64,000 nucleotides of DNA from assembly GCA_964016885.1 (NCBI GenBank), contig OZ024741.1:104904001-104968000 (forward strand), read 5' to 3'. The DNA is from Eledone cirrhosa (Eukaryota). The notes under the pieces are model-generated. The model made no database searches. It worked only from the letters and a program-made list of their open reading frames with translations, and was not told where the DNA came from. Both the position numbers and the translations under genes were made by a program. This document shows, piece by piece, positions 23,225-25,512 of the stretch. Each line of letters starts with the position of its first letter. The first letter of the stretch is position 1.

Positions 23225-23692
23225 TTCTCTCTGTTTCTCTCACCTTCTTTTGCCCTCTCTGTCAGTTACACTTTCTCTCGACTGACCGCTTCCTCGCACT
23301 TCCACTCACTCACTCTCTGTTTCTCCCCTTCTCACTTCGTCCCGTTTTGCTAACAGTGGGCCTTTTCTTGCTTCCATCTCACTCACGTCGGACGTCTGTA
23401 CTAATCGCTCATGAAATCCACCCAGCTTATGCTGACCAGGACTACCATGTTGCTTGTTTATTTCCTTTCTTTGGTTTGTTTTTATCCTTCTATGTTGTTC
23501 ACTTGTCCCCCTCGCTTTACGCGATTACAGGTCCCAATAACTTTTTTTAGCTTATTGCTCGCACCAACCTGAGGTATCCGATTTTTAATGCGATGAAATA
23601 CCAATGATGGTTGGCAAATCACTGACGAAGGACTATTTTTATCATATGTAACCCATGTGCAAACCACGCAGTATTCTTCTTTCTTCTCATGT
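23225..23692 (+). mobile_element. Non-coding retrozyme-like element F3, single ~470-nt unit in (TA)n
   Basis: Pyrimidine-rich body like F1/F2, plus the conserved motif at 23531-23633. Confidence 0.7.
23531..23633 (+). ncRNA. Candidate permuted K-turn hammerhead (F3)
   Basis: GTCC..TCGCA-CCAACC-TGA-GGTA-TC-CGATTT-TTAA-TGCGA-T-GAAA-TACC-AATGAT-GGTTGG-C-AAATCA-CTGACGA-A-GGAC. Confidence 0.65.
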
Positions 23693-24123
23693 TTATATAT
23701 ATATATATATAATATATACATATATAATATATATATAATTGAATAAACAAGAGAGATGAACACTAATATAAAGATACATGTGTTCGAATCGTAAGGACTA
23801 GGTTAAAAAAGGCTAGGGTGAAAAAATACTAACTACAGCTTGTCAGACTTAATTTTAAGTAGTAAATTAAGAAAAACAACAGACCTATATCGGGCAAACG
23901 CCTGGTAACAACTAGCTCCTCGGTAGTTGTTGAGAAATTAGCGATCCTTCCACTTCTAGAAATATTAGAAGACTGAATTGTGTGCGATATATATATGTGT
24001 GTGTGTATATATATATATATATATATATATATATATATATATATATATATGTGTGTGTGTGTGTGTGTGTGTGTGTGTGTGTGTGTGTGTGTGTGTATGT
24101 GTGTGTGTGTGTGTGTGTGTGTG

Positions 24124-24455
24124 CTTGTAGACACCTGAAATATAGTTTAAGAGAAACTTAACAATAAGGAGAGGCACGCCAAATTTGAACCTGTTTATAG
24201 AATTCTTTCTGCCTTTGTCACTCTAAATACAGCTTTAAAGAATTAGCTTTTAAAGAATTCCCCTTTCTTTAAACCCATCAACCAATGACCTCCACCCATC
24301 TTGTAGACACCTGAAATATAGGCATTGTTAGCTTAAGAGAAACTTTAAAATAAGGAGTGGCACTCCAATCTGAACTTGTTTATAGAATTCTGTCTGCCTT
24401 TGTCACTCTAAATATAAATTATGGCTTTAAAGAATTAACTTTTAAAGAATTCCCA
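24124..24455 (+). repeat. Two tandem fragments of the PLE 3' end seen at 9390-9570
   Basis: CTTGTAGACACCTGAAATATAG at 24124 and 24300. Confidence 0.7.
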
Positions 24456-24480
24456 CACATGATATATATATATATATATA

Positions 24481-25512
24481 TGAGAAAAATGGAGCGTCGC
24501 GTGGTTGCACATGGGTTACATATGAATAAAATTAGTCCTTCATCAGTGATCTTGCAACTTTCATTTGTATTTCATCGCTTTAAAAATCTTATACCTTTAG
24601 TTGGTGCGAGCAATAACAAATAAAGTTATTGGGACAAGTACAATAGGGTGAAACGAGCGAGACATGTAAACAAACAACGATGGTATGGCAACGGAAAGAA
24701 TGGAAGAGACAAGCACATGAAATCTGTAAGCTTAAGCTTGGTGGTGCAACCACGCGACGCTCCATTTTTCTCATATTTATATTTTTTCCTCAGTTTGTCT
24801 GTTTCTTTCTTACTGCTCCCCTCTCTCTGTATCTCTCTCCTCTTTTTACCCCCTCTGCCAGTCACTCTCTCTCTCTCTCAGCTGGTCTCTTCCTCACTCT
24901 TCCACTCACTCACTCTCTGCTTCTCCCCCTCTCTCACTTCCTCCCGTTTGACCTCTGTGAAATCCTTTCTCGCTCACATCTCACCCTTGTCGGATGGTCT
25001 GTATCTCTCGTCCATGAATTCACGAAACTTAAGCTTACAGATTTCATGTGCTTGTCTCTTCCTATCTTTCCGTTGCCATACCATCGTTGTTTGTTTACAT
25101 GTCTCGCTCGTTTCACCCTATTTTACTTGTCCCAATAACTTTATTTGTTATTGTTCGCACCAACTAGAGGTATATGATTTTTAAAGCGATGAAATACCAA
25201 TGAAAGTTGCAAGATCACTGATGAAGGACTAATTTTATTCATATGTAACCCATGTGCAACCACGCGACGCTCCATTTTTCTCATATTTATATTTCTTCCT
25301 CAGCTGCGATTGTCTGTTTCTTTCTTACTGCTACCCTCTCTCTGTATCTCTCTCCTCTTTTTACCCCCTCTGCCAGTCACACTCTCTCTCGGCTGGTCTC
25401 TTCCTCACACTTCCACTCATTCACTCTCTGCTTCTCCCCCTCTCTCACTTCCTCCCGTTTGACCTGTGTGAAATCCTTTCTCGCTTACATCTCACCCATG
25501 TCGGATGGTCTA
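24481..25512 (+). mobile_element. Non-coding retrozyme-like element F2: 510-nt unit x1.5 plus inverted 5' copy, in (TA)n
   Basis: GTGCAACCACGCGACG at 24744 and 25254; 24481-24737 is inverted unit sequence. Confidence 0.8.
25129..25229 (+). ncRNA. Candidate permuted K-turn hammerhead (F2); inverted copy 24535-24635
   Basis: GTCC..TCGC..CAACT-AGA-GGTA-TA-TGATTTT..GCGA-T-GAAA-TACC-AATGAA-AGTTG-C-AAGATCA-CTGATGA-A-GGAC. Confidence 0.7.

Follow-up and report, generated by a model that had tools for sequence, protein, structure and literature searches.

A non-circularly permuted and probably self-cleaving hammerhead motif in a high-copy repeat of Eledone cirrhosa

A stretch of 64,000 nucleotides from Eledone cirrhosa (the window; contig OZ024741.1, positions 104,904,001 to 104,968,000) contains several copies of a non-coding repeat with a compact RNA motif. 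As judged from its sequence, this motif is a real, selected RNA structure and very likely a new permutation of the hammerhead ribozyme, which would cut its own RNA as part of a retroelement. We assign this reading a probability of about 0.8. An earlier note on this DNA had interpreted the motif as a scrambled hammerhead. That interpretation is supported, with two details altered (which helix is stem II, and the identity of what had been called distal stem III). The three families on which it was based (F1, F2 and F3) are not independent of each other; they are related to one another as subfamilies of a single element.

The motif is about 101 nt long and has six helices. Its hammerhead blocks are ordered S-G-C, a non-circular permutation (blocks C, G and S and six block orders are described in Eckert et al. 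2023, PMC10085705). The 5' half consists of the 5' strand of P1, the hairpin P2, the 5' strands of P3 and P4, a 3-nt linker and block S (stem III, U16.1, H17 and stem I). This is followed by a 4-nt linker, the 3' strand of P3, one base, G12-A15.1, stem III and a 6-nt linker. The 3' end is formed by the 3' strand of P4, stem I, the C3-A9 strand, zero or one base, and the 3' strand of P1. Block C is split, with the 5' strand of stem II located about 70 nt upstream and P1 following A9. For the F2 copy, the parts are the following.

25129-25229, + strand: F2 motif copy (model match 25126-25232)
25129-32/25226-29, + strand: P1
25133-53, + strand: hairpin P2
25155-59/25185-89, + strand: P3 (stem II)
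25160-65/25205-10, + strand: P4 (stem I/II clamp)
25169-72/25195-98, + strand: stem III
25173, + strand: U16.1
25174, + strand: H17
25175-80/25212-17, + strand: stem I
25191-94, + strand: G12-A15.1
25218-24, + strand: C3-A9
between 25174 and 25175, + strand: predicted cut

The predicted cleavage site lies between stems I and III, which would form as in any hammerhead. Stem II, which belongs between A9 and G12, is represented by the covarying helix P3. This helix precedes G12 and would replace stem II on that side, while its 5' strand is found elsewhere than after A9 and its closing pair varies. The chain would exit after A9 via P1, and P1 together with hairpin P2 would return it to the 5' strand of stem II, giving a junction of three helices with the core. 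P4 directly adjoins stem I and P3 at their distal ends, the position of a stem I/II tertiary contact, and we infer that it acts as a clamp that joins the distal ends of stems I and II in three dimensions. The 3-nt linker from P4 to stem III may be tight in such an arrangement.

P3 is the helix that the earlier note had described as a 5'-flank helix. Its U-A versus C-G change is as reported there, and the other changes are also confirmed, but the last pair is A.A in 7 of the 17 scored subfamilies, and P3 has only four pairs in 7 of these 17. A single 10.1-11.1 pair had been considered as stem II. This pair is indeed G-U or A-U in some subfamilies, but it is U-A, C.A or A.A in others, or there is no base after A9; as a general stem II it was rejected. 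The so-called distal stem III is present together with its changes, but it corresponds better to the helix through which stems I and II interact in type SGC. Hairpin P2, which covaries, is absent from the list of helices in the earlier note. Canonical type I, II or III readings were rejected: block S pairs with just one G block, and this block lies between S and C. An Rfam scan of the window at E<=1 gave 109 matches, none of them to a hammerhead family; there were only microsatellite-driven miRNA matches below threshold. The absence of a hammerhead match is expected if the order of the parts is unusual.

The window contains exactly six motif copies according to a model built from related copies (the family of the 8222-8328 match was part of the training set). 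Three of them lie inside the span 23531-25229: the F2 copy above, an inverted F2 copy and the F3 copy. The other copies and the insertions that carry them are listed here.

23531-23633, + strand: F3 motif copy (model match 23528-23636); H17 is C, at 23578; G12-A15.1 at 23595-98; C3-A9 at 23622-28; predicted cut between 23578 and 23579; private mismatch at the first stem I pair
24535-24635, - strand: inverted F2 motif copy with private mismatches (model match 24532-24638); H17 at 24590
8225-8325, + strand: F1 motif copy (model match 8222-8328); H17 at 8270; G12-A15.1 at 8287-90; C3-A9 at 8314-20; predicted cut between 8270 and 8271
7470-7570, - strand: inverted F1 motif copy, identical to 8225-8325 (model match 7467-7573)
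7736-7831, + strand: F1 motif copy with its 5' side cut by the inversion junction and without the 5' strand of P1, 494 bp upstream of the 8225 copy (model match 7729-7834)
7419-8329: F1 insertion; inverted 5'-truncated copy at 7419-7739 (-), then about 1.2 monomers of 494 bp at 7736-8329 (+), terminating in (TA)n
23226-23708, + strand: F3 insertion; roughly one monomer, with flanking (TA)n runs at 23175-23225 and 23694-23737
24462-25515: F2 insertion; inverted 5'-truncated copy at 24462-24743 (-), then about 1.5 monomers of 510 bp at 24744-25515 (+), terminating in (TA)n at 25511-25646

The window also contains other mobile elements. A second repeat group shows an ordinary type I hammerhead layout in the style of Penelope-like elements (PLEs), with a short palindromic stem III. 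Its members, which form inverted pairs, occur at 8509-9070, 9707-10093, 10559-10621, 14343-14472, 16102-16258 and 18859-19010; some flank PLE ORF fragments (11471-12418 and 17460-18143). A PLE at 28449-33361 has direct repeats that are 99-100% identical and an open frame of 784 aa at 29746-32100 (-), which we take to encode a reverse transcriptase plus a C-terminal GIY-YIG-like domain, as in a C-terminal-EN PLE. It is a candidate for an active helper. The C3-A9 core strand was not found on either strand of 28449-33361, and a Pfam search of the PLE-like ORFs of the window gave no match. There is a large inverted duplication of a PLE fragment at 54918-59738 (arms of 1,544 and 830 bp, 99%). Two types of non-LTR retrotransposon presumably occupy 34556-40551 and 41515-46488, one with a CCHC/nuclease-like C-terminus and one L1/Tx1-like with two ORFs, and 63312-63779 is presumably a fragment of a PIF1-like helicase.

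The carrier of the motif is a non-coding repeat unit of 490-650 bp (494 bp for F1, 510 bp for F2) with a GC content of 38-42% and one motif per unit. Same-strand copies are mostly spaced by 490-650 bp (82 units). At least 14,499 copies are present in the 3.0 Gb genome (14,499 matches to a pattern for blocks G and C, with 0 for the control), and an older family adds 1,042 further matches under a partly overlapping pattern. The list of motif families in the genome is a lower bound. Copies of F1 from different chromosomes are 100% identical over 115 nt. A tandem array of about 24 units (about 11.5 kb, period about 495 bp) is found at C3:160.216-160.228 Mb. Of the pairs of neighbouring copies, 97 are direct, while 46 are inverted with their 3' ends pointing outward and 6 with them pointing inward. 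(TA)n runs adjoin the insertions, partial tandems occur, and the inverted neighbour is 5'-truncated, a pattern that Craig et al. described for PLEs (PMC8557442). The motif is located near the 3' ends of the insertions, as it is in Naiads. No ORF linked to the repeat unit was found among the 254 loci examined; 17 of these have a match to a C-terminal-EN PLE, at no fixed position or strand. Viral and metagenome contigs that were searched for the motif gave 0 matches.

Conservation is concentrated in the catalytic core. Of 264 full copies, 3 were dropped as truncated or chimeric; among the remaining 261, 212 fall in 19 subfamilies and 49 in none. When the majority letters of the 19 subfamilies are compared, none of the 11 core positions is variable, compared with 57 of the 91 other columns (Fisher p=6e-5). 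Among the paired columns 40 of 66 vary, and among the unpaired columns outside the core 17 of 25 do (unpaired versus core, p=1.5e-4); these tests overstate independence because the subfamilies are related. The oldest families were retrieved with patterns that contain the core. The C3-A9 strand is invariant in 19 of 19 subfamilies apart from N7 (U or C). G12-A15.1 and the A15.1-U16.1 pair are also invariant, and H17 is A or C, never G. This agrees with the N7 and H17 variation described in the earlier note, and free variation of GAAA/CUGANGA, which would have spoken against its interpretation, is not seen between subfamilies. Its statement that the rest of the unit is far more diverged holds mainly in comparison with the core: in 914 pairs of diverged monomers (<85% alike), identity is 64% in the body, 72% in the motif outside the core and 97% in the core.

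Changes in the core resemble ordinary decay. A13 is changed in 260 matches versus 14,499 intact ones (1.8%), which equals the rate at which copies decay from their own subfamily (1.85% per site). A suspected A13U subfamily was rejected, as these variants occur on many different backgrounds and with a frequency equal to that of decay. Among 100 listed matches, A-to-T seemed commoner than A-to-G at A13 in several subfamily backgrounds; the general spectrum of copy changes has 52 A>G and 22 A>T. A core-free pattern gave 6,680 matches, and in the first 100 of these, inspected by eye, core changes are scattered and confined to single copies.

The same layout is found at the 3' ends of published Naiad elements. 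Craig et al. 2021 (PMC8557442) describe Naiads as being without canonical hammerheads, with 10 cases flagged as "core" and 8 as "half-core", an octopus and a squid element among them. We read File S5 of that paper by eye around matches to the core strand (for one spelling, places 1-55 of 62; for three others, places 5-13; parts 19 and 25 as a whole), which is neither a census of the 54 records nor a computed alignment. In this reading, ten records from octopus, squid, corals and clam shrimp show this layout, although the letters of their stems differ: Naiad_Obim, Ovul, Esco (with one mismatch in P3), Amil, Aacu, Anas and EuTe, and three more from parts 9, 12 and 12. In most of them, by eye, stem II is closed by G-C next to G12. 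Naiad_Bfor reads as the same layout with a stem I of 2-3 bp, while inspection by eye of the 3' ends of Naiad_Adux, Ppla and 1_Skow revealed no core. One record in the arthropod section (part 17) reads as a third variant, in which the order is S-G-C and stem II forms a local hairpin next to P1. In the nematode section, six records were read by eye as type CSG, the three Nbra elements among them. These readings (File S5 parts 13-17) are clean; two metagenomic sequences of this type are known.

The P2 loop and the 3-nt linker of octopus Naiads recur in Eledone cirrhosa subfamilies, as does the 6-nt linker of Obim. It is thus in layout, loop and linkers, all read by eye, that the 3' end of the repeat resembles that of an autonomous Naiad. 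Naiads also resemble the repeat in their (TA)n targets, partial tandems and inverted 5'-truncated neighbours (PMC8557442), but they bear ORFs, which the repeat lacks; the sequences were compared within the motif. Three exact patterns did not find a Naiad ORF in the genome (two matches of one of them lie on the opposite strand of another retroelement), nor was a Naiad ORF found next to the motif at the loci examined. The repeat is a non-coding retroelement of about 500 bp that likely derives from the 3' end of a Naiad PLE. Because the same layout ends several published Naiads, elements that have been called hammerhead-free likely carry a rearranged self-cutting form. Cephalopod Naiads have been reported as long inactive (PMC8557442), and a different enzyme, such as the C-terminal-EN PLE at 29746-32100, may move the repeat now.

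Each unit most likely self-cleaves 3' of H17, as far as the motif itself permits a prediction. The RNA of a unit would be cut once, by the same G12/G8 chemistry that has been reported for other hammerheads (PMC11300833). Transcribed multimers would in this way be resolved into monomers, which might be circularised, and a Penelope-type reverse transcriptase acting in trans would copy the monomers into (TA)n sites, as has been proposed for animal retrozymes (PMC7229834; preprint 10.64898/2026.07.22.740005).

Genomic traces of such cleavage are faint. Of 110 5'-truncations, 16 lie just 3' of the predicted site versus 4.4% expected, with no sharp peak, some breaks being reference-mismatch artefacts and short copies perhaps being favoured anyway. 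Junctions exactly at the predicted site number 60, versus 0 at one control position; 52 come from one amplified subfamily and 8 are unrelated. The amplified subfamily joins exactly at the site without microhomology, which fits an RNA end there. The 60 junctions amount to one suggestive event only, because 135 deletion matches have left ends that are scattered, as seen by eye. Members of the amplified subfamily (L095, L097, L100, L262-L289; e.g. G000:C1:60022579) have a unit of about 840 bp in which a partial copy ends at the predicted site and joins an internal position. A separate deletion of about 20 nt, from stem III to the core strand, occurs in about 15 of 44 rows and in several subfamilies (e.g. 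G000:C1:408572143, C2:73711783, C3:301529711); it may reflect slippage, or reverse transcriptase may have jumped over a hairpin.

Alternatively, a real, hammerhead-derived structure might have ceased to cut in this lineage, its fold being kept as a handle for the PLE reverse transcriptase near the 3' end of the RNA. In line with this, deletion breakpoints show no accumulation at the predicted site. The 3'-terminal location of the motif in insertions and Naiads suits such a handle, as do the weak, non-canonical pair next to G12 in most subfamilies and the partial conservation of unpaired linkers outside the core (8 of 25 columns invariant). We nevertheless regard this explanation as unlikely. 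Protein binding would not predict a core pattern that recurs from cnidarians to crustaceans, nor one that leaves all 11 core positions invariant while H17 and N7 vary just as hammerhead chemistry allows.

If the motif does cut, the pairing might still be a different one. The units occur in tandem arrays, and dimeric cleavage is known for amphibian retrozyme hammerheads (PMC7229834), so that blocks from neighbouring monomers or from two RNAs could combine; such a hammerhead would be dimeric or act in trans, and its P1 would link different monomers. Pairing within and between units is indistinguishable by covariation. All six helices can, however, close within 101 nt, single Naiad 3' ends carry the whole motif when read by eye, and there is no second G block between block C of one unit and block S of the next. 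Cleavage through such pairing therefore seems improbable, and self-contained cleavage of each unit is the reading that we retain.

The helices themselves are supported by covariation. All helices and substitutions that the earlier note had listed for the copies at 8225 (F1), 23531 (F3) and 25129 (F2) are present where it had placed them, including the G-C versus A-U change in stem III and the G-U in stem I. A C.A at the first stem I pair of F3 and an outer C.C mismatch of F2 were judged to be private decay because the respective subfamilies pair at these positions, which for F3 is what the note had suspected. At the subfamily level, 595 of 613 cells are canonical pairs, and 25 of 33 alternative pair types are canonical, 19 of them two-sided. 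On a tree of 45 monomers from which the motif had been left out, 17 pairs switch Watson-Crick type, with 29 switches in total, so the changes stay compensatory in a larger alignment, as the note had proposed to check.

A set of 33 natural copies was chosen to span the subfamilies. Here, 94.5% of cells pair, versus 84.1 +/- 0.6% in shuffles (0 of 500 reach the observed value) and 25-44% in slid controls; related sequences can beat shuffles without structure. Two-sided changes occur at 18 of 34 pairs, which is matched in 1 of 500 shuffles, whereas the count of further pair types is not above shuffles (386 of 500). Stem I is 97% paired with 3 of 6 pairs two-sided, stem III is 97-100% paired with only one two-sided pair, and in P4 5 of 6 pairs are two-sided. 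G-U intermediates are seen in stems I and III. In 11 copies without a base after A9, P1 was shifted by one column in the subfamily scoring and left unshifted in the 33-copy test. Unaided, RNAalifold recovers P2, P4 and stem III but not P1, P3 and stem I, of which P3 and stem I cross the helices that it found. A family of 24 copies that was fetched later, with one relative already in A1, keeps the core and pairs in 724 of 814 cells; its letters in P1, P4 and stem I are its own, and the final pairs of P3 and P4 are systematically mismatched. A chance resemblance, in which a satellite-like or SINE-like repeat has a few subfamilies (64-97% alike) that inherited a handful of changes, is very improbable, since changes acquired by decay break pairs (143 of 200 variants within subfamilies, 57 keeping them) while inherited ones keep them (25 of 33; p=5e-7), the switches are separate ones and the layout recurs with unrelated letters in other phyla.

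Non-circular orders are known among hammerheads (SGC, CSG and one GCS); SGC and CSG ribozymes cleave in vitro (PMC10085705). Type SGC (HRIMA-1 and variants) is among the closest. The Eledone cirrhosa motif shares with it the S-G-C order, the I/II clamp helix, the invariant core and a short linker that connects stem I with the 3' strand of stem II (4 nt here, 3 nt in SGC). In SGC, however, the 5' strand of stem II and the clamp directly follow block C, while here they are upstream of block S and reached via P1 and P2. The published scheme has block C never interrupted by more than one or two bases (PMC10085705). The motif was not filed as SGC proper because A9 is followed by P1, with stem II's 5' strand some 70 nt further upstream. 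The 583 predicted SGC ribozymes stem mainly from metatranscriptome contigs of hairpin-ribozyme-bearing RNAs, unlike the present animal genomic repeat of >14,000 copies. Type CSG (two sequences in Eckert et al. 2023) has the same ring order of strands, but it is opened between block G and the clamp, has an intact block C and lacks the P1/P2 junction. When the strands are joined to a ring, we infer, their order (C, II-5', clamp, S, G, clamp) is also the one found in SGC and CSG, and the Eledone cirrhosa motif would differ in its point of opening, a new one that lies between A9 and stem II. A remote strand also forms helix II in the PK hammerhead, in which a pseudoknot stands in place of helix II and the core works and is fast (PMC11300833); that ribozyme has a pistol-like connectivity and one extra stem-loop, compared with two extra helices and a non-circular order here.

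As a mobile unit, the repeat has its parallel in the animal non-LTR retrozymes (PMC7229834; Li et al. 2026, preprint 10.64898/2026.07.22.740005). Both are non-coding, low-GC tandem repeats with one ribozyme per unit and thousands of copies, and both are linked to Penelope-like elements. Non-LTR retrozymes have type I hammerheads and units of about 170-400 nt, in contrast to the S-G-C order and units of 490-650 bp seen here, and type I descriptors miss the Eledone cirrhosa motif. Known retrozymes are highly self-paired circles, whereas the monomers of this repeat fold weakly (z -2.4 and -0.3). By its sequence features, the repeat would work like a retrozyme without being a member of that group as defined. 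In the literature that we searched, neither a split block C nor permuted hammerheads from Naiads are reported, and no such motif is described for an animal repeat.

It is probable that non-circularly permuted hammerheads are common in animal genomes and that they are the missing ribozyme of the Naiad clade, with the split-block form in cnidarian, cephalopod and crustacean Naiads and CSG in nematode Naiads, each of them an opening of a single ring order. The repeat of Eledone cirrhosa would be a Naiad-born retrozyme that has spread to >14,000 copies. If true, this adds a hammerhead topology that the scheme of six types excludes by assumption, and non-circular permutations move from rare environmental RNAs to high-copy animal retroelements. 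The prediction is exact, as it names one phosphodiester and six helices. Ribozyme counts in invertebrate genomes are probably too low, because descriptors for types I, II and III miss the motif. The stated absence of hammerheads in Naiads, which has been used to argue that ribozymes are dispensable for PLEs or parasitic on them (PMC8557442), would be overturned.
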